Assembly (NCBI GenBank): GCA_964590105.1
Contig: CAZPYM010000001.1
Coordinates: forward strand, 1,022-65,021
From: an uncultured Gammaproteobacteria bacterium
Lineage (GTDB): Bacteria > Patescibacteriota > Patescibacteriia > UBA11705 > JABHMO01
DNA length: 64,000 nucleotides
Reading direction: 5' to 3'
The notes beneath the pieces were generated by a model. That model made no database searches. It was not told the origin of the DNA and saw only the letters and a list, made by a program, of their open reading frames with translations. The position numbers and the translations under genes are program-made. Positions 130 through 41,584 of this stretch are shown piece by piece (position 1 is the stretch's first letter; every line of letters begins with the position of its first letter).

Positions 130-1086
130 TTATATAAATGCAAATATTTTTCCAATAAACAGAACGTAAAAAATCACCAGCATCCAGCCTTCCCAGCGGG
201 TGATTTGTTTGTCTTGGGTAATGAAGAAATAAAGCAAAGTGGCGATGATCATTATTGGCAAACTAAAAGTAATGATGGAGGTCGGGATAATTAGCGTGCC
301 AAACAGAGCCGGAATGCCCATGACAGCGAGCGCGTTAAAAATATTTGAGCCGAGAACATTGCCGACCGCCATTTCCGGCTTGCCGCGTCGGGCCGCGCTC
401 ACTGTAACAACGAGTTCCGGCAATGAAGTGCCGAGCGCCACGGCGCTGACAGCGATCACTTCCCGGCCGATGTTTAGAAGTTCGGAAAGCGCAATTACTG
501 AATCAATGGTGTATTTTGCGCCGACATAGAGGAAAAAAGCGCTGCCAAATAAAATAGCGAATGTTGACCAATGAATTTTTTTATTTTTTATTTCTCCTTT
601 AATTTCCTTTTTCATTTCCGCGTCGCCATTGCTTTCTGCTGATACTGTATATAGTAAATAAACAACAAGGCTGACCAGGCAGATGATCGCTTCGCTAAAA
701 GTAAATTTGCCGTCCCAGATCGTTATTGCCAGGAGAAACGCTGAGCCGACAAGCAAAGGAAGATCAACATGGATTAGCTCGTGCCCAATTTTAATTTTTT
801 TGCCAATAATGGCGGCCAGGCCGAGCACTAGGAAAATATTGGCGATATTGGATCCGACAACATTGCCGACCACAATTTCCGGGGCGCCCGCGAAAACAGC
901 AATAATTGAGGAAACAAGTTCAGGCAGAGAGGTGCCGATAGCCACAATGGTCACTCCGACAATAAAAGCGGGCATACCGAGCGCCAGCCCGATTTTTTCC
1001 GCCGCCTCAGTAAAATAATCCGAAGATTTGACCAGCACGGCCAGGCTGGCGATGAAGACGATTAGCCAAAAAATAGTTGGGAGCAT
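130..1086 (-). CDS. Ca2+/Na+ antiporter (CaCA family, YrbG-like)
   Basis: The duplicated 'GTSLPELVSS / GTSLPELVVT' alpha-repeat motifs are typical of the cation/Ca2+ exchanger family. About 10 TM helices. 318 aa. Confidence 0.85.
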   Translation of the reverse strand: MLPTIFWLIVFIASLAVLVKSSDYFTEAAEKIGLALGMPAFIVGVTIVAIGTSLPELVSSIIAVFAGAPEIVVGNVVGSNIANIFLVLGLAAIIGKKIKIGHELIHVDLPLLVGSAFLLAITIWDGKFTFSEAIICLVSLVVYLLYTVSAESNGDAEMKKEIKGEIKNKKIHWSTFAILFGSAFFLYVGAKYTIDSVIALSELLNIGREVIAVSAVALGTSLPELVVTVSAARRGKPEMAVGNVLGSNIFNALAVMGIPALFGTLIIPTSIITFSLPIMIIATLLYFFITQDKQITRWEGWMLVIFYVLFIGKIFAFI

Positions 1087-1203
1087 AGAATTATAAAATT
1101 ACAAATTACAAATAACAAATTGAGCGAATTGGCGAATTAGTGTATTCTGCGCCTGCCCCCCCTTGTCTCTAACGCCCCACGCTCCACAATTTCGGGAAAA
1201 TTA

Positions 1204-1680
1204 TTATTGAAACGTCCGGCTGATCCATTCGCCGACAAAGTGCGTGATTATAATTACGGCGACAACAGTTGCGAGGTGCTCGCCGATGACTTTGTAGGGT
1301 TTTGTTTTTTGCATTTTTGCGAGGTAATAACTGAAAACGCCTAAAAGTAAAATTCCCCAGGCAATACTTGCGATGATGGCGGTGTTTAGCGGCAGTAATA
1401 AAACAGGGACAATGAAAGTCATGGCAAAAATAAATTTCGCGAGAAATGTTGAAATGGTGGCGGTCCAGATTTGTTTTGGCGTATGATGATTTTCTGATTC
1501 TTCTGAAACGTGAATTCCGAGCGCGTCGGAAAAAGCGTCGGCAATGGCAATCGTTAAAATAGCGCCAATGATTATTAATTTCGAATGAGTGCCTGAATGC
1601 AGTCCGACCATGAGGCCGAGTGTGGTGATTACGCCGGAAGTGAGTCCGAAGCTGAAGCCGATTTTTAGAGAATGTTTCAT
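1204..1680 (-). CDS. VIT1/CCC1-family membrane protein (putative Fe/Mn transporter)
   Basis: 158 aa polytopic membrane protein. The 'GLTSGVITTLGLMVG' stretch resembles the VIT-family TM core. Family assignment by eye only. Confidence 0.55.
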   Translation of the reverse strand: MKHSLKIGFSFGLTSGVITTLGLMVGLHSGTHSKLIIIGAILTIAIADAFSDALGIHVSEESENHHTPKQIWTATISTFLAKFIFAMTFIVPVLLLPLNTAIIASIAWGILLLGVFSYYLAKMQKTKPYKVIGEHLATVVAVIIITHFVGEWISRTFQ

Positions 1681-1744
1681 ATGGGGAGGCGAGTAATTCA
1701 GTAATTAGGTAATTGGGAAATTATGTAATTGAGGGAACTGCAAG

Positions 1745-5076: not shown

Positions 5077-5634
5077 ATGAATAAAGCATCTCTCAAAGAA
5101 AAATACCTGATTTACAAGGTTCGTCAGAATAAGGACGCGGAAAGCTATGGCCAGTTGTACGATTATTATGTTGACCGGATTTTTCGGTTTATACTGTTCA
5201 AAGTGTCGTCCGTTGAAACAGCTGAGGATTTAACATCTGAAGTATTCCTGAAAACTTGGGAATACATTAATACTACGGACAAGAAGATCGGCAATCTGAA
5301 CGCCTTGCTTTACAAAGTGGCGAGGAACGCGGTCATAGATCATTATCGCAAAAAAAGAAATGATGTTATCGGTACGGACGAGGATTTCATGCATTCAATT
5401 GCTGACCATCGGATAAACATAGAAAAAGATGCAAACCTGAAAATTGAAATTCAGAGCATTGAAAAACATTTAGGAAAGTTAAAAGATATTTATCGCGAAG
5501 TAATTATTCTAAAATATATTGAAGAATTTTCTGTAACTGAAATAGCCGAGGTGATTGACAAGAGCCGCGGCAATGTGAGAGTTCTCTTGCACCGGGCATT
5601 ACAAGCATTAAAGGAAATAGCAGGCGAGGAATAA
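5077..5634 (+). CDS. RNA polymerase sigma-70 factor, ECF subfamily
   Basis: 185 aa. The region-2-like 'EDLTSEVFLKTWEYI' and region-4 HTH 'VIILKYIEEFSVTEIAEVIDKSRGNVRVLLHRALQALKE' are both present. Confidence 0.9.
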   Translation: MNKASLKEKYLIYKVRQNKDAESYGQLYDYYVDRIFRFILFKVSSVETAEDLTSEVFLKTWEYINTTDKKIGNLNALLYKVARNAVIDHYRKKRNDVIGTDEDFMHSIADHRINIEKDANLKIEIQSIEKHLGKLKDIYREVIILKYIEEFSVTEIAEVIDKSRGNVRVLLHRALQALKEIAGEE

Positions 5635-5710
5635 AACAAGTTGGCTAGTTTAAGCGGCAGTGGATGGGTCCAAGAACTGCTGAATAAACCAGCCAACTAA
5701 AAATTATTAC

Positions 5711-6901
5711 ATGCCAAATATTACCGAACAATTAAAACAGCTAAAGCAAGTCAAGCCAAGAAAAGAATGGGTTGATTCTGAACGCGAGCTTTTGTTGTCC
5801 CAGATTACCAGACAAACTGCAGTTAAACAGCAGTCTGTTTTTGTTAATAGCTGGTATCTGGCCAAGTCGCTCATGCCAGGCAGTTTGCTTCGTTTTGTTG
5901 CTCGCCCGGTCGGAGTTTTGACGGTGATTACATTATTCATTTTTAGCTCGGGAATTTTTGGCGTCAACGCGTCCAAAAATAGTTTGCCCGGCGATTTCCT
6001 TTATTCAGTGAAGCTGACCAGCGAAAAAGTTCAAGTCGGCTTTACTGTGGCAGAGGAAAAAAAGGCGCAAATGCATATGGGTTTTGCGGAGGAAAGAGTA
6101 AATGAGATTGAAGCGGTTTCCCAAAAGGCCATTACCCCGCAAAAGAAACAGGAAAAAATAGATGTTGCGGCCGCGGGCTTGAGCCAGGAAATGAAAAAAA
6201 CCCAGCAAACATTGGAACAAGTAAAGCAGGATTCGACCAAGTCAAAACTGATAGTGGAGGCAGTTCAAAAGGTTGATCAAAAAGCAGAAGAGCTGGGAGA
6301 TAGACTTGAACAGCAAAAACAAGAATTATTGCAAAATGATGTTTTGGTCGGGAAATCTATGGACATAGCCAAAGAAGCGACAGACGTAACCGCAGTGAAA
6401 GCAGTAGAAGTGATTGTAGACAAACGAGAAAAAGGCGATGTTAGCGTGACTGACAACGAATTGGTTGAAACAATCAATAAAAAAATTAATAAAGAACAAG
6501 AAAAAATAAAACAAGTTGAAACGCAGGTTAAAGAAGCGGCGCAGGGCCAGGCAAAGCTGATAGTGGATCAGGAAAAAGATGTTGAAACTTTGGCCGTTGA
6601 TCAGAAAAATGTTGACCAGAATATTATTCCAAATCAAGCAGAACAAAAATTAACCGAAGCAAAAGATTTTCTAAATCATGGGGATTTGGGATCTGCTTTG
6701 GAAAAAATAAAAGAAAGCGCCACTTTGACTCAAGAAGCAAAAGTCGGAGCGGAAACAATTGTCAGTCAAAATAAAGAAGCGGCCGAACAAGCAGAAGAGG
6801 TTGCAACGGACCCCTCCGAGATTTTACCAATAGAAGATAAAAACGCAGAAGGCGAGAAAGAGACGACTATTGAAAACAAGGGAACGTTGAAGGTGGAGTA
6901 A
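5711..6901 (+). CDS. putative membrane-anchored anti-sigma factor (coiled-coil, DUF5667-like)
   Basis: Lies immediately downstream of the ECF sigma gene. It has a roughly 60-aa N-terminal cytoplasmic part, one TM (VLTVITLFIFSSGIFGV), and a long Lys/Glu/Gln-rich extracytoplasmic coiled-coil. Confidence 0.5.
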   Translation: MPNITEQLKQLKQVKPRKEWVDSERELLLSQITRQTAVKQQSVFVNSWYLAKSLMPGSLLRFVARPVGVLTVITLFIFSSGIFGVNASKNSLPGDFLYSVKLTSEKVQVGFTVAEEKKAQMHMGFAEERVNEIEAVSQKAITPQKKQEKIDVAAAGLSQEMKKTQQTLEQVKQDSTKSKLIVEAVQKVDQKAEELGDRLEQQKQELLQNDVLVGKSMDIAKEATDVTAVKAVEVIVDKREKGDVSVTDNELVETINKKINKEQEKIKQVETQVKEAAQGQAKLIVDQEKDVETLAVDQKNVDQNIIPNQAEQKLTEAKDFLNHGDLGSALEKIKESATLTQEAKVGAETIVSQNKEAAEQAEEVATDPSEILPIEDKNAEGEKETTIENKGTLKVE

Positions 6902-7312: not shown

Positions 7313-10300
7313 ATGAAAAAAGTTTTAACACTAGGTGTTGTTTTGACAACAATCTTGTGGACTATAGGGATTGCCGCTTTTGTTCCAGTTGCTTCTGCTG
7401 CCACTTTGTCAGCGGGCGATTTGATCAAAGCTAGCGGAGCCGCAGTATATTTTTATGCTGCTGACGGCAAACGCTATACATTCCCTACAGAATCCACATA
7501 CAAAACTTGGTACGCTGATTTTTCCAGCGTAAAAACCATTACTGATGATGAATTGGCGGCTATTACTTTGGCTGGCAATGTAGTTGTCCGTCCTGGCACC
7601 GAGCTTGTCAAAATCACCACAGTTCCAAAGGTTTTCGCTGTATCGCCAAATGGTAAATTATCCTGGGTCAAGACCGAGCCAGCTGCCAAGGCGCTTTATG
7701 GTGACAATTGGAACCAAAGGATAATTGATATTCCTGATGGATTTTGGGTAAATTATATAGATACAGGCGCTGAATTAAATGGCACAGCCTTCCCAGAAGG
7801 CCAACTTGTTTCTCCTACTGATTCCGCAAATATCTACTATGTAGGTGCTGAAGGCAAGTGGAACCTGATCAAGGACGAAGCTGCTTTTACAGCCAATAAA
7901 TGGGCTTGGGGAAATGTAGTTGAAACATCTATTGCAATGGTTGCCGACGGTACAGAAATTACTGCCGTTGTCAGCGCTAATATTGATGCTTCACAAGGTG
8001 GCGGAGGTGGAACCGGGGTTGTTGTAGTTGCCGCTGGCAGTCTGTCAGTTGCGCTTAATACCACTACTCCTGCCGTTACTACTATTCCAACCAATGCAAC
8101 AGCCGCGGCCGCTAATGTCCCATTCACTTATGTGGACTTTACTGCCGGCAGTTCAGCTGTTACAGTTACTGGTTTGAAAGTAACCAGGACCGGACTAAGT
8201 CAGAACGCCGCTTTTGCAGCTATCAAGCTGTTTGATGGCGATACTCAAATTGGCACCAGCCAATCATTGAATTCATCAAACCAGGCTGTCTTCAATAATA
8301 TTTCTTTTGAAGTTCCTGCCAACAGCACAAAGACGCTGACTCTTGCGGCCACTATGACTCTTTCCGCGGCCTACACCAATCACATTCTTGCTTTGGGAAT
8401 TGCCGCAGCTAGCGATATTACAACTACTGCTACTCTTTCCGGTTTATTCCCTGTTACAGGCAATTCAATGACATTGAATTCCAGCATCACAATCGGTACA
8501 GCTACCCTTGCTAATGGTTCACTTGGAACAAGAAATACCACGAACCTAACTGTTGACACTGATGCCAAAGATGTTCGGTTCACACAGGTTAAGATTAGCG
8601 GCGGTTCTGGTGAGGCCGTAACTGTAAAATCAGTTACAGCTCTAAAGAATGGAACAGCGGCTAGCGCTGACATAACAAATATTCGTTTGGTCAATGACAC
8701 AACAGGCGAAACATTGAAGACTGTTACTACCCTGGATTCTTCAGGCAGAGCTGTTTTCAGCGGATTAAATGTTGCGATTGCCAAGGGCGAGTTTGTGGAA
8801 TTGTCAGTTTTGGCTGACATGAACAATTCCGGAGCCGGTCGAACAATAGCGTTTGACCTGTATGATGGTAATGCCTTTACAATTTCTGTTGTTGGCAATA
8901 CCTATGGATTTGGCATTACGCCGACTTCATCCGGAACAAACTTCTGCGGTGGCACTCCTTGGAACTGCACAGCGCAGACTATTAATCAGGGTTATTTGAC
9001 AGCCAGTTTGAGCGCCAATACTCCTGCCACAGGTAATGTCGCGCTTGGAGCTTCCAAAGTTCCATTGCTGAAATATAATCTGACTGCAGGTGGTGAAGGT
9101 ATCAATGTAACTTCAACTTTGTTGACAATTACAACCGGTACTGCCGAATTGAGCAAGATTACCCAGATTTCGATTTATGACAAGGATGATAAGATCGTAG
9201 CCGGACCGCAGGATGCTACAACAGCTTCCGCCGGTTCACAGAATTTGACCTTTACTGACGCTTATACAGTTCCGGCTGGTATTAACGAATATACCATATA
9301 CGCCAACACAGCCAGCGACATGTCAGCTCTTGATACTGTTTACGTTGCTTTGACTGTTAATGGTATTACTGCCAAAGGCGCTGATTCAGGCAAAACTACC
9401 TACACTACTTCAGCCGGTGCTACTGTTCCGCCTGCTTCTGTCATAACTGGCAAAACGCAGACGATCAAAGGACCGACTTTGAGAGTTATTACTGCCGCGA
9501 CTCCTATTGCTTCAACTTTTGTGGTAAATTCACAAGATGTTGACTTGGCTTACTTTGATTTGGATGCTACTGCTGGTGGTGAAGACATGAAAATAACTTC
9601 ACTTGTTGTTACTCAGACAGCCGTCACCCCGGCAAATCTATTGAATCTTGAATTGTGGGGCGATGCTGATAATACTGATGCTGACAATACAGTTGCTAAA
9701 CTGGGAACAACCAGCTCAACAGCTACTGGCGCCGCTACTAACACCTTTACTTTTCAAGTTCCTTTGAAGATTAGTAAATCAAAGATTAGCAGACTGACCT
9801 TGAAGGGTGATGTTATCGGAACAAGCGGAACAAACTTGTTCAAGATTGTTTCTGACAATGCTACAGCTGTTGGTTGGACAACAGGACAGACTGCTAGCAA
9901 GACTTACAGTGGAACTGGCCAGGCTCATACTTTGACAGCATCTGGTTCTTTGATAGTAACTGCTGCTGCTGGTAGAGCTGCTGCTGCTCAATTTGTAGCC
10001 GGCGCTACCGGTCAGTCAATGATGAGCTACAAGTTCCAAGCAACAAACGAAGAAGTCAGTGTAACTGATTTCTACATTGCCACAACCGGCACAGCGGCAA
10101 ACGCTAATATTGGCGTAGTCAAGCTTTATCTTGACGGCGCGCAAGTCGGTTCACTCAATGGTTATTCGCTTGACGCATATGGAATTGCTCACATTGTTCT
10201 AGACAGCGGAGTATTCACTGCCAAGAAGAGTCCTAGCTATACAACTTTGGATATTAAGGTTGACTTGGCTAGCAAAGATAACTTGGCTGATATATCTACC

Positions 10301-35018: not shown

Positions 35019-35254
<236 letters not shown>

Positions 35255-35275
35255 GCCAGGCATAAAATTATTAGT

Positions 35276-35554
35276 ATGGGTTATTTTGTATATTTTGCGC
35301 GTTGTCAGGATAAGAGTTTGTATATCGGTTGTACTGATGATCCGAATCAACGATTAAAGCGTCATAATAGAGGTGAAGGAAGCGAATGGATTAAACAGCA
35401 TGGTCCGGCAGAAATAGTATATTTTGAAGAATAGGATACTCTTATTGAAGCGAGAAGAAGAGAGCGGCAAGTAAAAAAATGGAGTCGAGTCAAGAAAGAA
35501 AATTTGATTAAGTGGGGGCATCCAATTCCCGAAAAATTGAAGGAGAAAAAATAA
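35276..35554 (+). pseudogene. GIY-YIG (YhbQ-like) nuclease gene interrupted by in-frame TAG at 35435
   Basis: 'MGYFVYFARCQDKSLYIGCTDDPNQRLKRHNRG..GPAEIVYFEE' up to the TAG, then in the same frame 'DTLIEARRRERQVKKWSRVKKENLI...', which is the conserved C-terminal helix of the family. The TAA stop abuts tRNA-Ser(TGA). Confidence 0.6.
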
Positions 35555-36374: not shown

Positions 36375-36449
36375 GTCCCCGTAGTTCAACGGATAGAATG
36401 TGAGCTTGCGGAGCTTAAGATCCAGGTTCGATTCCTGGCGGGGGCACCA
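36375..36449 (+). tRNA. tRNA-Arg (anticodon GCG)
   Basis: Cloverleaf: acceptor GTCCCCG/CGGGGGC, D-stem GTTC/GAAT, anticodon stem TGAGC/GCTTA with loop TTGCGGA (U33, G37), T-arm CCAGG-TTCGATT-CCTGG. CCA is encoded. A20 and C35 fit Arg identity. Confidence 0.7.
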
Positions 36450-36515
36450 AAATCAGTGGACGGCGCAGTGCGCCGACAACGAAAAAGCTGGTCAATTTTT
36501 TGAAAGTAAGATTTT

Positions 36516-36642
36516 GGTGTGTCTTTACGGTTTGGCTTGAACTCATTTGATTCGAAACTTCTGACCGAAACCAATCCCCCCGCCGCTCGCAAAGCTCGCG
36601 TGCCAAGCAAAAACATTTTCTTTGCATTTTTTGATTTCGCGC
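36516..36642. repeat. left copy of ~130-bp inverted repeat pair
   Basis: This is the reverse complement, at about 80% identity, of 39236-39376. The conserved blocks are gcaaagaaaatgtttttgcttggcaYgcgagctttgYgagcg and aatgagttcRagccaaRcYgtaaagacacac. Confidence 0.8.
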
Positions 36643-36690
36643 ACCACCCTCAAATTTTTTTTAATTAAGAAAAAGAAAATATTTTTCCCT

Positions 36691-37293
36691 ATGGAACAGA
36701 AAAACAATGTGTGGATAATCGCTCTCACCATCATCGTCACTACAGTTGTGGTCGGTGGTGGAGTTTACCTGTGGCAACAAAACAAGGTTGTTCAGAAAGT
36801 AGTTATAGAGGTAGCAACTGATACAGCTGCGAACAAAGGGGAGCCAAAAGAACCTCTCACTTATTCAACAAGTGGCGTTTCCGTTTCTGTTTCCAAAGAG
36901 ACGGCACCATTTGGTTTCACCGCTGACCAGTTGGTATCAAGGGCGGAAGAGTGCGGCAACGAACAGACGGTAAGTTATTTTAATAGCATAGTTTCAAAAT
37001 TTAGCGGTGCAACTAGAAGCGTGTACAATTTTAAATACACTGGAGCAAGTCAAGGATCTGACACTTTTGTCGTAACACTTTTGCCAAACAAAACGGGTTA
37101 CTCCTCTCTTGATGAGTTCAAAAAAGATTTTGATCAGTGTTACGCCGGTGGAGACGCTTATCCTAAAATGCTCAATGATGATTGGATCCTTTTTGTCAAT
37201 TCCTGCGGAACTGGTTTTAGTGATGGCTCGGGTAACCCAATTGGATGCCAGGAAGTCCGAGATGTGATTGAACCAACATTAAAGCTCAACTAA
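36691..37293 (+). CDS. hypothetical membrane-anchored secreted protein
   Basis: Start set at the internal ATG (MEQKNNVWIIALTIIVTTVVVGGGVYLW), downstream of the inverted repeat. One TM, then a roughly 170-aa extracytoplasmic domain. Confidence 0.5.
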   Translation: MEQKNNVWIIALTIIVTTVVVGGGVYLWQQNKVVQKVVIEVATDTAANKGEPKEPLTYSTSGVSVSVSKETAPFGFTADQLVSRAEECGNEQTVSYFNSIVSKFSGATRSVYNFKYTGASQGSDTFVVTLLPNKTGYSSLDEFKKDFDQCYAGGDAYPKMLNDDWILFVNSCGTGFSDGSGNPIGCQEVRDVIEPTLKLN

Positions 37294-37462
37294 AGATAAG
37301 GAACAAGGTTTAGCTGTTCAATTTGATTTATTAAAAGCTTAATTACAGTTATTGTCGCGCAATTTAGAGTGCTAGCCGGTGTTGCCGGATTATGTTTTGG
37401 AAATGGAAAATCGTGGAGAATCTATTTGGCAAGCTAAGGAAAAGATTTATTAACGCAAAAAT

Positions 37463-38122
37463 ATGAAAAAAATATTATATTTATCAATAGCCGTTTTTAT
37501 AACTGTTTTTATGGTCGGGTGCAGTCTACTGCCATCTTCAAAAAATATTGATGTTCCTTTTACATCCCAGGCGCCAGCCGGCAATTGGTCTGAACCGTGG
37601 AAAAACGCGTGTGAAGAAACTTCAATTTATATGGTTAGTAGTTTTTATGCTGATGATACAATCAAACGCGCCGAGGCTATTGAGAGGATTAAAGAAATAA
37701 TCGCCGCAAAAAATGCCGAATTTCAAATAAGTAAGGACGAGTCTTTACAAAAAATTTCAGAATTAATTATGTTGTTGGGGCTTCCTTGGGAAACAGAGAT
37801 AATAGAGAATCCTCCCATTGAAGATGTAAAAATACAGCTAGCTAATAATCAACCAATTATTGCCCCGGTTTTTGCGCCAGCTTTGGGCATTGCTGAAGAT
37901 GGTCCTGATTATCATGTTATGGTAATAACTGGGTATGATGACGCGACTAATGAATTTATTGTAAATGATCCAGCTCTAAAAAATGGTAAAGGAATCCGTT
38001 TTAAATATGATATCTTTATGAAAGCGATTCATGATTTAAACCAAACAAATTATAAGGCTGGTAAAAAAGCTTTGCTTTTTACTAAACTAAAAACAGGAAC
38101 CGATTGGTTCAATCTAAATTAA
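37463..38122 (+). CDS. lipoprotein with papain-like (peptidase C39-like) domain
   Basis: Lipobox (FMVGCSLL). Candidate catalytic Cys in 'WKNACEETSIYMV' and His in 'DYHVMVITGYDD', arranged like C39_2-type peptidases. Confidence 0.5.
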   Translation: MKKILYLSIAVFITVFMVGCSLLPSSKNIDVPFTSQAPAGNWSEPWKNACEETSIYMVSSFYADDTIKRAEAIERIKEIIAAKNAEFQISKDESLQKISELIMLLGLPWETEIIENPPIEDVKIQLANNQPIIAPVFAPALGIAEDGPDYHVMVITGYDDATNEFIVNDPALKNGKGIRFKYDIFMKAIHDLNQTNYKAGKKALLFTKLKTGTDWFNLN

Positions 38123-38138
38123 TTAAAATTTACGTCTT

Positions 38139-39044
38139 ATGAAAAAGTTTATTACATTGGTAGTTCTGTCGTTTGGAATTGTCTTTCTCGTCGGTTGTAG
38201 TCAACAGCCAATTACGCCAGTTCAACCAATTGAACCGGCCACTTCAATTCCAGTCGTCGTAGCGCCACCGTCAACCCTGCCCAATCAAGATATTAACTAC
38301 GAAAATCAAACTTTTGGTTTTACTTTAACTTTTCCGCAAACATGGGAGGGGTTTAATACTTCTGAACTGACATATGATAGTTACAGTAGTGTTTGTTTTA
38401 GCTTCAAAAAACCACAGCCGTTTTGTATATTTCAAATAACCAAATTTACCAAAAATCAGTGGGAGCAAGTAAAGTTTAAAGATACGAAAAATATCTTGTC
38501 GGAAACTGCTGATTTGGTTACTATTTGTGATGGATGTTGCGAACAGGGCGGTGATACAACTGGCGGCGGACAATTTGATCAATTCCAAATTGAAAGATGT
38601 AAGGAAGTGCCAAATATTATAAAAACCTATACTCAAATTGCCCAGGTTACAAACAAAATTAATGTCTTTGTGTCATTTCCCAATAATCAACTTTACCCAA
38701 ACATGTTGGATTGCGCGAAAGTCTTTGGAACCCCCCGAACAATTGATGAAACATTGGCAGTCGGTAGAGCCGCCCTTGAAGAGTTGTTTAAAGGGCCAAC
38801 GGCGCAAGAAACAAAAGATGGGTATTTTACCAATATACCCGCGGGCGTTAAAATTCAAAAATTAACCATAGAAAATGGTTTGGCAGAAGTTGACTTGAGC
38901 AATGAACTTCAACAGGGAGTCGGCGGATCATGCCGCGTTGACTCCATCCGAGCAGAGATTACAGAAACGCTTAAACAATTTCCAACCGTGCAATCTGTTA
39001 CCATCTCTATTAATGGCAAAACTGAAGATATTTTGCAGCCTTAA
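38139..39044 (+). CDS. lipoprotein with C-terminal GerMN domain
   Basis: Lipobox (FLVGCSQQ). The C-terminal 'AALEELFKGPTAQETKDGYFTNIPAGVKIQKLTIENGLAEVDLSNEL' resembles a GerMN (sporulation/germination) domain. Confidence 0.6.
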   Translation: MKKFITLVVLSFGIVFLVGCSQQPITPVQPIEPATSIPVVVAPPSTLPNQDINYENQTFGFTLTFPQTWEGFNTSELTYDSYSSVCFSFKKPQPFCIFQITKFTKNQWEQVKFKDTKNILSETADLVTICDGCCEQGGDTTGGGQFDQFQIERCKEVPNIIKTYTQIAQVTNKINVFVSFPNNQLYPNMLDCAKVFGTPRTIDETLAVGRAALEELFKGPTAQETKDGYFTNIPAGVKIQKLTIENGLAEVDLSNELQQGVGGSCRVDSIRAEITETLKQFPTVQSVTISINGKTEDILQP

Positions 39045-39235
39045 TATTTTTGCGTCAGATTTCAAAATCCACGTTTGGATGATGTGGGTTTTTGAAATTA
39101 TTTGTTTCCACCTATAAAAATGGACCGCTATATACATCGCAAGCATTCCTAACAAAAATTCAGAGGATGATAATTTCGTGCCACGCAGTCTATCCGCGTC
39201 GCCCACAAACCATAATTGGAAAAAATTGGGGGTGG

Positions 39236-39376
39236 CGCTCGAAATTCAAAAACGCAAAGAAAATGTTTTTGCTTGGCATGCGAGCTTTGTGAGCGACGGC
39301 GGGGCTGGCTTTTTTGGTCTAGTTTCGCTCAGCTGTTTTTGATAAAATGAGTTCGAGCCAAGCTGTAAAGACACAC
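39236..39376. repeat. right copy of ~130-bp inverted repeat pair
   Basis: See 36516-36642. Together the two copies bracket three secreted-protein or lipoprotein genes. Confidence 0.8.
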
Positions 39377-39502
39377 TAGGAACCACTTGTCCCTTCGGGG
39401 CGCGGGTTCATGCTTGGCCTATATTTGAACAAAGTGAGTAGCTAGACTTGAGTAAAAGAAAAACTGACAATAGGCAGTTTTTTTTGATTAGCGCGAAGAA
39501 TA

Positions 39503-41584
39503 ATGGTAAAATATAATGGTTATAAAGATAATATGGATCTGCAAACGCCGATCAGCGAACTCACGCGCGTGGGCAAAACTACGGCCGCGCGTTTGAAAAA
39601 TCTTGGCATGCAAACAATTCAGGATCTAATTTTTTATTTTCCGTTCCGTTATGAAGATTTTAGTTTAATTAAAGATATCAATGAGCTGATTCCAAATGAG
39701 CCGGTGACAGTCAGGGGTAAAGTGCAATTAATCGCCAACCGAAGAAGTTTTCGTAAAAGAAAAATTGTTACAGAGGCTTTGGTTACTGACGAAACCGGCA
39801 GTGTCAAGGTGATCTGGTTTAATCAGCCATTTATTTCGAAAATAATTAAAGTCGGAGATGAGGTTTTTTTGTCTGGAAAATTGGATGAAGAGCGCTTGCA
39901 GTTTGTCAGTCCTGAATATGAAAAAGCAAAAGCCAATTCTTTGACTGTGCATACGGCCAGATTGGTCCCGATTTATCATTTGACGCAGGGAGTAACGCAA
40001 AAGCAGTTGCGTTTTCTGATCAGCCAAACCGATAAAGTGATTTTGCAAATTGAAGATTATCTGCCCGAAGAAATTATCAGCAAATATAAGTTTTTGCGGC
40101 TAAATAAAGCTTTGTTTAATATTCATTTTCCTTCAGGTAAGCAAAACGCAGAAGCAGCCAGAAAGAGATTGCAATTTGACGAACTTTTCTTGATCCAATT
40201 GGGGATTCAAAAATTAAAAAAAGAACTTCAGCAAAACAAATCGTCAAAAATAAAATTTCTGGAAAAGCAGACAAAAGATTTTGTGGCAGATCTTCCGTTT
40301 AAGCTAACCAATGCCCAAAAAAAATGTTCATGGGAAATAATTCGGGATCTGGAGAAAGCCAGGCCTATGAACCGTTTGTTGGAGGGCGATGTCGGGTCAG
40401 GCAAAACAGTAGTCGTGGCGCTGGCTATTCTGAATGCAGTCCTCAATGGCTACAAAGTTGTAATGATGGCGCCAACGGAAATTTTAGCGATTCAGCATTA
40501 TCAAACATTACAAAAATTATTCGCAAAACAAAAATTTTCCATTGCTTTATTCACCGGGAGTAGGCAGGAGGTTAACGGAGAAAAGGCAGGAAAAAAACTT
40601 CTTTTGCAAAAGCTTGCACTTGGTGAATTTGATATTGTTATTGGAACACAGGCCTTAATCCAGGAAAACGTCAAAATAAAAGATTTAGGGCTAGTGGTAG
40701 TGGACGAACAGCACCGGTTTGGCGTCAGCCAGCGGAAATCATTGGTTCAACGCGGGAAAAAGGATTATCTGCCGCACTTTCTTTCTCTGACCGCCACGCC
40801 AATTCCGCGCACTTTAGTTCTAACTTTGTACGGCGACCTGGATTTGTCAATAATCAATGAAATGCCGCCGGGCCGCAAACCAGTAATCACCCGCGTTGTT
40901 TATGAACAGCAGAGGTTGCAGACCTATGAATTTATCCGCCAGCAGGTGCGGTCAGGTCGGCAGGTATTTGTAATTTGTCCTTTAATTGATCCTTCCGACA
41001 GCATGGGGGTAAAATCAGTAAAACAAGAATTTGAAAGGTTGGACAAGCAGGTTTTTCCGGATTTAAAAATTAGCTTAATGCACGGACGGTTAAAACCAAA
41101 AGAAAAAGAACAGGCAATGAAGGAGTTCAATGAGGGAAAATCAAATATTTTGGTGTCCACTTCAGTGATTGAAGTCGGGATTGACATACCGAACGCCGTG
41201 ATTATGATGATCGAAGGCGCGGACAGATTTGGCCTGGCTCAATTGCATCAATTTCGCGGACGGGTCGGTCGGGGAGAGCATCAATCTTATTGTTTTGTTT
41301 TCAGCGAGAGTAATTCACCGGTAACAAAAAGGCGCCTGAAATATTTTGAAGAATGTTCTGATGGTTTCAAGCTGGCGGAAAAAGATCTTGAATTGCGAGG
41401 TTCTGGTGAAGTGTACGGCACCAGACAATCCGGCTTGCCAGATTTGAAAATTGCCAGCCTGACTGATGTGGCGCTGATTCAGGTCGCTCAGACCGAGGCG
41501 CTGGCGCTTGTTGAACAGGATAAAATCAGCGTTGCGTTGGAAAAGGTTTTAGCTAAACAAAATTTAAGTTTGCATTTTGAATAA
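39503..41584 (+). CDS. recG: ATP-dependent DNA helicase RecG
   Basis: 693 aa. Wedge/OB N-terminus, helicase motifs 'EGDVGSGKT', 'VVVDEQHRFG', 'QLHQFRGRVGRG'. Confidence 0.9.
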   Translation: MVKYNGYKDNMDLQTPISELTRVGKTTAARLKNLGMQTIQDLIFYFPFRYEDFSLIKDINELIPNEPVTVRGKVQLIANRRSFRKRKIVTEALVTDETGSVKVIWFNQPFISKIIKVGDEVFLSGKLDEERLQFVSPEYEKAKANSLTVHTARLVPIYHLTQGVTQKQLRFLISQTDKVILQIEDYLPEEIISKYKFLRLNKALFNIHFPSGKQNAEAARKRLQFDELFLIQLGIQKLKKELQQNKSSKIKFLEKQTKDFVADLPFKLTNAQKKCSWEIIRDLEKARPMNRLLEGDVGSGKTVVVALAILNAVLNGYKVVMMAPTEILAIQHYQTLQKLFAKQKFSIALFTGSRQEVNGEKAGKKLLLQKLALGEFDIVIGTQALIQENVKIKDLGLVVVDEQHRFGVSQRKSLVQRGKKDYLPHFLSLTATPIPRTLVLTLYGDLDLSIINEMPPGRKPVITRVVYEQQRLQTYEFIRQQVRSGRQVFVICPLIDPSDSMGVKSVKQEFERLDKQVFPDLKISLMHGRLKPKEKEQAMKEFNEGKSNILVSTSVIEVGIDIPNAVIMMIEGADRFGLAQLHQFRGRVGRGEHQSYCFVFSESNSPVTKRRLKYFEECSDGFKLAEKDLELRGSGEVYGTRQSGLPDLKIASLTDVALIQVAQTEALALVEQDKISVALEKVLAKQNLSLHFE

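Follow-up and report, generated by a model that had tools for sequence, protein, structure and literature searches.

Two inverted copies of a long repeat enclose three genes for secreted proteins just downstream of a tRNA-Arg(GCG) gene in an uncultured bacterium, and the question raised by this locus is what the repeat represents and how the genes came to lie between its copies. The locus is part of contig CAZPYM010000001.1 (assembly GCA_964590105.1), of which a stretch of 64,000 nucleotides was analysed. This whole stretch is termed the window, and positions given without a locus number refer to it. Judged from its FtsE/X, RecG and RadA neighbours and from homologue names, the organism belongs to the Patescibacteria, near Magasanikbacteria/Kuenenbacteria. 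The segment 36457-39377 is probably a decayed, non-autonomous member of a family of Patescibacteria cassettes with folded terminal inverted repeats of ~330 bp.

The left arm of the repeat occupies 36517..36690 on the plus strand. The right arm occupies 39210..39377 on the minus strand, with its outer terminus at 39377. Searches with nhmmer and alignment to intact copies from other loci identify each arm as the 5′ half of one and the same terminal inverted repeat. In a MAFFT alignment of ~160 nt the arms are ~83% identical, with a single 14-nt indel. A repeat search resolves them into two collinear blocks, 36568-36659/39220-39311 (92 nt, 85% complementary) and 36517-36571/39322-39376 (55 nt, 82%). 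When the left arm was compared with the 64-kb window by blastn, the right arm was matched at 77% identity over 165 aligned columns (E=5e-32) and no third copy rose above noise. The 25-mer TGCCAAGCAAAAACATTTTCTTTGC is identical in both arms, where shuffled sequences are expected to yield no match. The initial annotation, made by reading the letters of the window, had reported this inverted repeat at 36516-36642/39236-39376; the blastn match bears it out, and the arms extend further inward, to 36690 and 39210. The left copy had been placed about 65 bp past the tRNA gene, and the measured distance is 67 nt from the tRNA end given by ARAGORN (36449).

The repeat had been open to the objection that it might occur only here, and it was found in other metagenome contigs. 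A 24-mer shared by the arms was scanned against public metagenome contigs, which gave nine loci that are 82-93% identical over the full arm length and continue to match one another for ~170 nt further. This additional part of the intact copies is GC-rich and hairpin-forming, and is missing in the window. The flanks of the copies are unrelated between loci. Gene callers place spurious open reading frames (ORFs) on the element, and searching proteins with one of these ORFs brought up more divergent copies. The intact element measures ~330 nt (profile of ~340 positions), and its outer terminus is always (G)TGTGTCTTTAC, as it is in the left arm. Against the family profile, 36515-36690 corresponds to positions 1-183 (E=1e-55) and 39377-39210 to positions 2-163 (E=5.2e-52); nhmmer found no match in the window outside the two arms.

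The element was also considered as a protein-coding sequence. The ORFs of 102-167 aa called over it do align with one another, but their N- and C-termini are unrelated, the 14-nt indel between the window copies breaks the frame, and in one locus (L021) a hairpin of the repeat is flipped. Since the ORF alignment conserves GC-rich DNA blocks only, the repeat is treated as non-coding. The same holds for the peptides MFLLG(T/M)RAL on either side of the module, correctly recognised at the outset as translations of the repeat; they are read from its opposite strand (ORFs 36386..36616, minus, and 39092..39292, plus).

The window arms are related to the intact copies of group A at 87-89% (left) and 87-88% (right), and these copies are 92-99% identical among themselves. 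Each arm is therefore nearer to the intact copies than to its partner, which argues for independent decay and not for a recent duplication in situ. Such a star-like pattern of identities would fit two ends that have been decaying separately after loss of function. The structural elements have decayed as well. In alignments with intact copies, helices 1-3 and 5-8 have no 3′ strand in the window arms, and in the right arm this is true of all conserved helices. The 3′ strand of the long stem survives as a degenerate trace in the left arm (36672-36686) and is absent from the right. On each strand of each arm the folding energy is close to that of shuffled sequence (z between -0.02 and -0.68), and Rfam 15 gave no family for the arms at gathering score or at E<=10. 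The suggestion that the repeat could be a duplicated small-RNA gene is not supported for the window copies on these grounds. The local gcaaa-tttgc hairpin on which it drew is in reality one strand of a long-range stem of 17-20 bp, whose partner is missing on the right and degenerate on the left. The arms probably have no function of their own, and the feature in the window is a dead remnant.

In four other loci the repeat occurs as an inverted pair with the outer termini pointing outward and the cargo inside, the arrangement that is also seen in the window. The most complete, L029, has two full-length repeats, ~98% identical over ~330 nt, around five genes: SLFN/AlbA_2, Vsr, HaeII endonuclease, Dcm methylase and a helix-turn-helix (HTH) gene of the HTH_3 type. 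The other three pairs are cut by contig ends; L025 holds the same HaeII cassette, L030 encloses genes for a cupin, a HAD hydrolase and a CTP-transferase, two GH130 genes and an HTH gene, and L019 encloses YcaO. Single repeat ends followed by an HTH gene and then by cargo were found with an N6/N4 methylase (L031), DUF5655 (L032), an Hsp70-like protein (L022), Tsp45I and a methylase (L028), a 1292-aa GNAT-containing protein (L027) and a P-type ATPase (L020). Locus L021 closes with a methylase and a TdeIII endonuclease. The layout is shared by seven of the eight cassette types: terminus, repeat, ~100 nt, a 66-73-aa HTH_3 gene, variable cargo and the inverted repeat. The YcaO cassette (L018/L019) is bounded by a repeat subtype and has no HTH gene. 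The HTH proteins of eight cassettes form one family at 39-77% identity, whatever the cargo, and those of the two HaeII-cassette copies are 96% identical. Directly outside the YcaO-cassette repeat in L019 there is a free-standing LAGLIDADG endonuclease gene (5620-6108, 162 aa, Pfam E=2.5e-7).

Each cassette has two distinguishable ends, the identity of which stops at about GGGATTTGT and is followed by an end-specific final hairpin, ATTTTGC/GCAAAAT on the HTH side and GCCAGC/GCTGGC at the far end. A further ~60 nt lie beyond the repeat at the HTH-side end; in the window they are found at 36457..36516 on the plus strand as the palindrome GGCGCAGTGCGCC followed by AAAAAGCTGGTCAATTTTTTGAAAGTAAGATTTTGG. 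This sequence is 85-90% identical to that ahead of the repeat in L026, L029 (right end) and L031, and L031 has no tRNA at its copy; by these alignments the ~60 nt belong to the HTH-proximal end of the cassette family.

Several further observations concern these ends. Three HTH-side ends abut the 3′ ends of tRNA genes: tRNA-Arg in the window, tRNA-Val in L027 and tRNA-Leu in L020. In L020 the trailer of tRNA-Leu, CCAAAATCTGACT, is identical over 15 nt to the reverse-complemented sequence that borders the repeat on the outside in L026, L029 and L031, and the 15-nt string CACCAAAATCTGACT is common to the repeat end and this trailer. A tRNA-like terminus was considered in view of the repeat end, which in reverse complement is ...GTTCGAGCC...ACACCA, but it was rejected: no tRNA model matched at E<=10 and no T-arm could be drawn. 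Insertion beside terminator hairpins as a rule was likewise rejected, a hairpin abutting the terminus in L029 (z=-8.6) and weakly in L025, with none at the other 11 junctions.

Insertion sequences (ISs) are present at two of the copies. In L026 (300-1709) an IS110-family transposase gene (388 aa, 543..1709) follows a repeat copy that is broken inside the loop of the second GC-rich hairpin. By its sequence, the hairpin seems to have been the target of an IS110 insertion, at a site orthologous to the left junction of the window. In L020 (2997-4300) a high-GC IS1595-type transposase gene (316 aa) with its own inverted repeats of ~19 bp (CATATCCGGTT.A.TCAAC) has replaced the HTH-side repeat and the first HTH codons, right beside the tRNA-Leu. 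Both are secondary insertions with ends of their own, and neither transposase has a relative in the window.

Evidence for movement comes from the site itself and from its relatives. In L012, whose proteins are 79% (RecG), 80% (RadA) and 76% (FtsX) identical to those of the window, the gene order is FtsX, tRNA-Ser, tRNA-Ser, DUF5673, tRNA-Arg(GCG), RecG and RadA. The gap between tRNA-Arg and recG is ~100 nt there and 3,083 nt in the window, so that the proposed check for an empty site is answered by a locus in which the tRNA is directly followed by recG. The site is variable across the clade; in L014 another ORF of ~100 aa, which has a promoter-like sequence of its own, lies in the gap (7575-7903), and in L013 the upstream gene is a different one. 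The left junction of the window recurs at ~90% identity with different contents behind it, namely the IS110-interrupted repeat in L026 and the HaeII restriction-modification (R-M) cassette in L029. The cassettes in turn occur at different sites: the HaeII cassette is 87% identical over 4.4 kb between L025 and L029 with unrelated outer flanks, and the flanks of the YcaO cassette are unrelated between L018 and L019.

The only enzyme gene of possible relevance is found outside the repeats. In L018 (1-609) and L031 (1-528) a divergent gene ~200 nt beyond the repeat encodes a large serine recombinase, with a Resolvase N-terminal domain (E=4e-24) and a length of >203 aa that continues past the catalytic domain. 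Between these loci the recombinase is 80% identical, and the repeat subtypes and the cargo differ (YcaO in one, HTH and methylase in the other). It has no match in the window. No autonomous element with the same repeats and a transposase was found among ~16 loci. A viral origin was considered and rejected: a 24-mer and a 35-mer of the repeat were unmatched in IMG/VR, two 18-mer matches were due to chance, and the serine recombinase had no relative in that database.

The fold is conserved among intact repeats, and an intact copy reaches folding z-scores of -5.8 and -6.4 on its two strands. RNAalifold predicts 60 pairs from 12 copies, 14 of them with compensatory changes. In the named structure 96.8% of cells are paired, and 13 pairs have changed on both sides (35 such cells). 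None of 500 shuffles reached the observed paired or compensatory values, and when the partners were slid by 1-3 columns ~50% remained paired with 0-2 compensatory pairs. Five of the eight helices have compensatory changes, five covarying pairs falling in the 17-bp stem alone. The GCAAA...TTTGC piece is one strand of this 17-20-bp stem, its partner being ~75 nt downstream in intact copies. The divergent copies L031 and L032 have extra hairpins inserted in loops. In L021 (~2130-2180) the second hairpin (GCGCGGCGGAA-loop-TTCCGCCGCGC) is the exact reverse complement of that in all other copies, a flip of the hairpin at the DNA level. With three helix-end pairs set aside, G-U and A-C pairs number 10 and 7, giving no clear strand. 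Of the proposed covariation and Rfam checks, the former gave covariation in the intact copies and the latter no Rfam family at E<=10 either for the nine loci with fuller copies or for the intact copy; the Rfam output held chance hairpin matches far below gathering scores only. A consensus scan found no sigma-70-like promoter within the repeat. A single-stranded intermediate, a role as RNA and insulation from outside transcription are possible reasons for the base-pairing of the ends.

The cargo of the window differs from that of the intact cassettes. The three genes are as first described: a membrane-anchored protein, a C39-like lipoprotein and a GerMN lipoprotein, with a lipobox VGC legible in the translations of the latter two. 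As had also been stated, no integrase or transposase is present, according to a Pfam scan of the enclosed genes. The first gene, g1 (36691..37293, +), encodes a 200-aa protein with an N-terminal membrane anchor. It belongs to a Patescibacteria-restricted family with 82 homologues at up to 80% identity, and no Pfam domain was found in it. Its nucleotide homology to relatives (78-80%) is limited to 36686-37294, beginning 5 nt ahead of the ATG and ending with the stop codon. The relatives, in which the gene sits in other contexts, have a native promoter and trailer; these are absent in the window, where the ORF abuts the broken repeat. At most, its transcription would have to start at the tRNA side or inside the left arm.

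This gene is followed by a pseudogene fragment of the LytR_cpsA_psr type (37292..37444, +) with in-frame stops, representing the last ~55 codons of a 397-aa gene. It is matched by tblastn at 61% identity (E=1e-12) and by blastn at 74% over 171 nt to L001, L002 and L003; in L001 and L002 the full LytR-like gene sits directly ahead of GerMN. Between the stub and GerMN lies the gene for the C39-like lipoprotein with a papain fold (37463..38122, +; Pfam Peptidase_C39_2, 1.9e-14), which has no match among the related loci L001-L035. In the suggested comparison of composition this gene is deviant, with a GC content of 34.8% and 26% GC at third codon positions, against 42+/-2% and 40+/-4% in long ORFs of the window. 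By composition it would be foreign. The GerMN gene (38139..39044, +; Pfam Germane, 2.8e-18) has homologues at 74-81% identity in a conserved context (LytR-like / GerMN / ATP-grasp / DEAD-helicase), and these orthologues have no repeat nearby. In one relative (L004, 4388-5950, and L005, 387-1949) the N- and C-terminal halves of GerMN both find their match in one ORF of 520 aa, where ~180 additional residues separate them, an expanded or fused form.

There are no paralogues of g1, C39 or GerMN in the window, and tblastn with three family HTH proteins found nothing below E=0.4 there, so that a cassette HTH gene is also lacking. The bare ORF of g1, the LytR-like stub, the deviant C39 gene and a GerMN gene from another context together indicate that the three-gene module is a secondary filling. 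It would be a patchwork within a dead cassette, and neither a native operon nor the original load.

The observations behind the favoured reading of 36457-39377 as a decayed cassette are thus the family membership of the arms, the inverted pairs in four other cassettes, the empty site, the varied contents behind the left junction, the mosaic cargo and the fold of the intact repeat. The course of events may be reconstructed as follows. A family cassette would have occupied the intergenic site between tRNA-Arg(GCG) and recG in the lineage of the window. Its interior would then have been lost, each repeat being deprived of its inner half and the HTH gene disappearing together with the original cargo. 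The gap may have been refilled by the promoter-less g1 ORF, by the LytR-like stub with its neighbour GerMN and by a foreign C39 gene, and the two arms would now drift independently. The family as a whole may move as DNA, with an enzyme provided in trans cutting and joining it at the ends of the repeats; the sole candidate seen for this role is the large serine recombinase beside two copies. The folded inner part of the repeat could act in single-stranded form or as an insulator.

A number of findings weigh against this reconstruction. Neither the window nor L029 has a visible target-site duplication at its outer ends, so that the signature of classical DDE cut-and-paste transposition is missing; such a duplication may have decayed in the window, and the true proximal boundary of L029 may lie beyond the contig. 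None of the repeat pairs was found to enclose a transposase or recombinase, and the serine recombinase sits outside the repeats in two related loci only. A double-stranded transposase site needs no covariation of helices, and the covariation therefore points to a single-stranded or RNA role that the DNA-cassette model does not explain. The change at the site may be an insertion in the window or a loss in L012, a fairly distant relative. The copies found do not exceed two per genome, and as the contigs of the same strain from other samples are all identical to the window, they offer no sign of movement within the population.

Among the alternatives, the one that survives best is that the repeat is a structured RNA that brackets HTH-controlled operons. 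It could, for instance, act in cis as an insulator, terminator or stabiliser, or be a regulatory RNA in its own right. The inverted pairing would let transcription from either side read the same sense RNA, and the window copies would be truncated pseudogenes. This agrees with the multi-helix fold, with compensatory changes in five of its eight helices, with a folding energy far lower than that of shuffles and with the extra hairpins in the loops of L031 and L032, as seen in structured RNAs. It also agrees with the exchange of helix 8 for a different, still paired hairpin at the two ends of a cassette. Nonetheless, even at E<=10 no Rfam family is matched, and a conserved promoter is missing, as the upstream flanks are unrelated and the repeat contains no sigma-70-like site. 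Both strands fold equally well, with G-U against A-C at 10 to 7, and the second hairpin of L021 is flipped as DNA. A sharp common outer terminus and inverted pairs around variable cargo are typical of DNA elements, and the same cassette at different sites is left unexplained. An RNA identity is hence considered unlikely, although it retains some weight.

A more speculative proposal, and a rather improbable one, is that the 330-nt repeat is a folded single-stranded DNA or RNA substrate for recombination. It would serve a cassette capture-and-exchange system specific to the candidate phyla radiation (CPR), as an analogue of integrons and pdif modules, possibly served by the large serine recombinase. 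Whole cassettes (defence, metabolic or envelope) would be swapped at a few fixed docking sites such as the tRNA-Arg flank. The footprints of such a system could be the differing cargo behind one ~60-nt docking sequence (window, L026, L029 and L031), the repeat subtypes that differ at one recombinase locus (L018 and L031) and the ORF-precise patchwork of the window.

A Hin/Gin-type switch, in which a site-specific invertase would flip the enclosed segment by crossover at the inverted repeats, is very improbable. Inverted repeats do bound a discrete segment, a serine recombinase gene adjoins the repeat in L018 and L031, and the hairpin loop of L021 is inverted. However, no recombinase is present in the window, including any match to that of L018 and L031, the recombinase seen is of the large integrase type, and the window arms are truncated and only ~83% identical. 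The segment has one orientation in the window and in six contigs of the same strain from other samples; as all of these are identical in sequence, the evidence is weak. The intact operons have their own HTH gene, with a promoter-like region readable just ahead, so that flipping would alter nothing obvious.

An island or decayed composite element had been suggested by the initial annotation. In the form of a classical tRNA-integrated island with a tyrosine integrase, or of an IS-bounded composite transposon that has since lost its mobility gene, this is scarcely credible. The tRNA-adjacent insertion with a decayed repeat stands: the unit adjoins the 3′ end of tRNA-Arg, L012 provides an empty site, and HTH-proximal ends also abut the 3′ ends of tRNA-Val in L027 and tRNA-Leu in L020. 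The far boundary, however, has no direct repeat of the tRNA 3′ end, the best local alignment scoring 13 against 13.9+/-2.1 for shuffled sequence, and the boundaries are inverted and not direct repeats. None of the enclosed genes has an integrase domain. The IS-type composite fails, as the arms are fragments of a non-coding 330-nt element and not insertion sequences, the ORFs over it being frame artefacts.

The notion of a one-off local inverted duplication or a chance similarity, to which the mere two copies in the 64-kb window might lend colour, is already refuted by the within-window E value of 5e-32, by the profile matches, by the same sequence at 82-93% in nine other contigs with unrelated flanks (and in divergent copies found through called ORFs) and by the greater similarity of each arm to outside copies than to its partner.

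The flanks of the decayed cassette retain some features of their own. The tRNA-Arg(GCG) gene (36375..36449, +; ARAGORN, Rfam tRNA model 61.4 bits) ends 8 nt ahead of the start of the inserted unit. It is syntenic with the tRNA-Arg(GCG) genes of L012 and L014, yet only 73-75% identical to them, whereas the two neighbouring tRNA-Ser genes are 84-92% identical to the copies of the relatives. The cassette-adjacent tRNA-Arg is unusually diverged or a replacement. Between the tRNA-Ser genes (35148-35434) lies an ORF of 60 aa (35252..35434; YFVYFARCQDKSLYIGCTDD...RLKRHN), the sequence of which looks like a GIY-YIG nuclease domain.

On the other side, a spacer of 165 nt (39045..39209), delimited by reading the sequence, separates the GerMN gene from the right arm and has no homology to any of the other loci compared. 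A 9-bp hairpin in this spacer (39064-39092) could serve as the terminator of GerMN transcription; it was not among the hits of the terminator scan. The right flank up to recG (39378..39532, +), assessed by promoter and terminator scans and from the layouts of relatives, begins with a hairpin that touches the right arm (39378-39394). A T-run (39478-39486) follows, and a promoter-like site, TTGATT-17-TAAAAT (39484-39512), overlaps the start of the longer recG ORF. A similar promoter layout precedes recG in L012, L013 and L014, and RecG relatives align from residue 11 onward only. The start codon of recG is probably the ATG at 39533, not that at 39503.

No description of such a CPR element and no family name was found in literature searches, and the cassette family is apparently undescribed. 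The closest described things are mobile insertion cassettes (MICs) and certain transposon-like R-M units. MICs are passenger genes between IS- or Tn3-type inverted repeats that lack a transposase and are mobilised in trans, such as MIC231 of Bacillus cereus and the TnXax1-derived MICs of Xanthomonas (PMC4337579). Like these, the Patescibacteria cassettes consist of cargo framed by a pair of inverted terminal repeats and lack an internal transposase; the same repeats frame many cargoes, and the same cassette occurs at different sites. The repeats of MICs measure <100 bp and can be assigned to a known IS or Tn family whose transposase is known, and the TnXax1 MICs have 5-bp target duplications (PMC4337579). 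The Patescibacteria family, in contrast, has hairpin repeats of ~330 bp supported by covariation and an HTH gene in most cassette types, with no parent transposon and no target duplication found.

Furuta, Abe and Kobayashi (2010) described transposon-like R-M units flanked by imperfect inverted repeats, and suggested a non-autonomous transposon moved in trans (PMC2853133). The likeness lies in the imperfect inverted repeats, the lack of a mobility gene and the recognition through an empty site, and members of the Patescibacteria family likewise carry R-M systems (HaeII/Dcm/Vsr, Tsp45I and TdeIII). The repeats of the Furuta units measure 26-65 bp, are unique to each unit and come with 8-bp target duplications (PMC2853133), whereas one long repeat family spans R-M and non-R-M cargo in Patescibacteria. 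The window member, unlike the Furuta units, has no R-M genes.

Two further systems share single aspects of the family. The pdif modules of Acinetobacter plasmids, reportedly described by Blackwell and Hall in 2017, are said to be bounded by inversely oriented XerC/XerD sites. The pdif sites are 28 bp long and are used by the host Xer recombinases. Both systems have accessory modules between inverted copies of one sequence with no recombinase inside, and modules are swapped at the same sites. The Patescibacteria cassettes differ in being chromosomal, and no Xer-type site was identified in the 330-nt repeat. In integrons, the attC site is recognised by IntI as a folded single strand; it is 60-140 nt long, with one per cassette in direct orientation, and the enzyme is a tyrosine recombinase. 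Common to integrons and the Patescibacteria family is a recombination-associated sequence that is conserved in structure beyond the needs of a double-stranded site, and the divergent recombinase gene beside the cassette in L018 and L031 resembles the intI/attI arrangement. The Patescibacteria cassettes differ in their two inverted 330-nt repeats and multi-gene cargo, and in that the nearby enzyme, a candidate only, is a serine recombinase.

The Patescibacteria, or CPR bacteria, have tiny genomes, mostly lack CRISPR and are reliant on restriction-modification. To our knowledge, their mobile elements are poorly charted. The family is judged to be worth a systematic survey. Repeats of this kind would explain why assemblies break at such points, and the conserved base-pairing in the 330-bp ends of a DNA element poses a mechanistic question. 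A common, structurally constrained end-repeat would be a handle by which the flexible gene pool of the CPR could be found and delimited in metagenomes.

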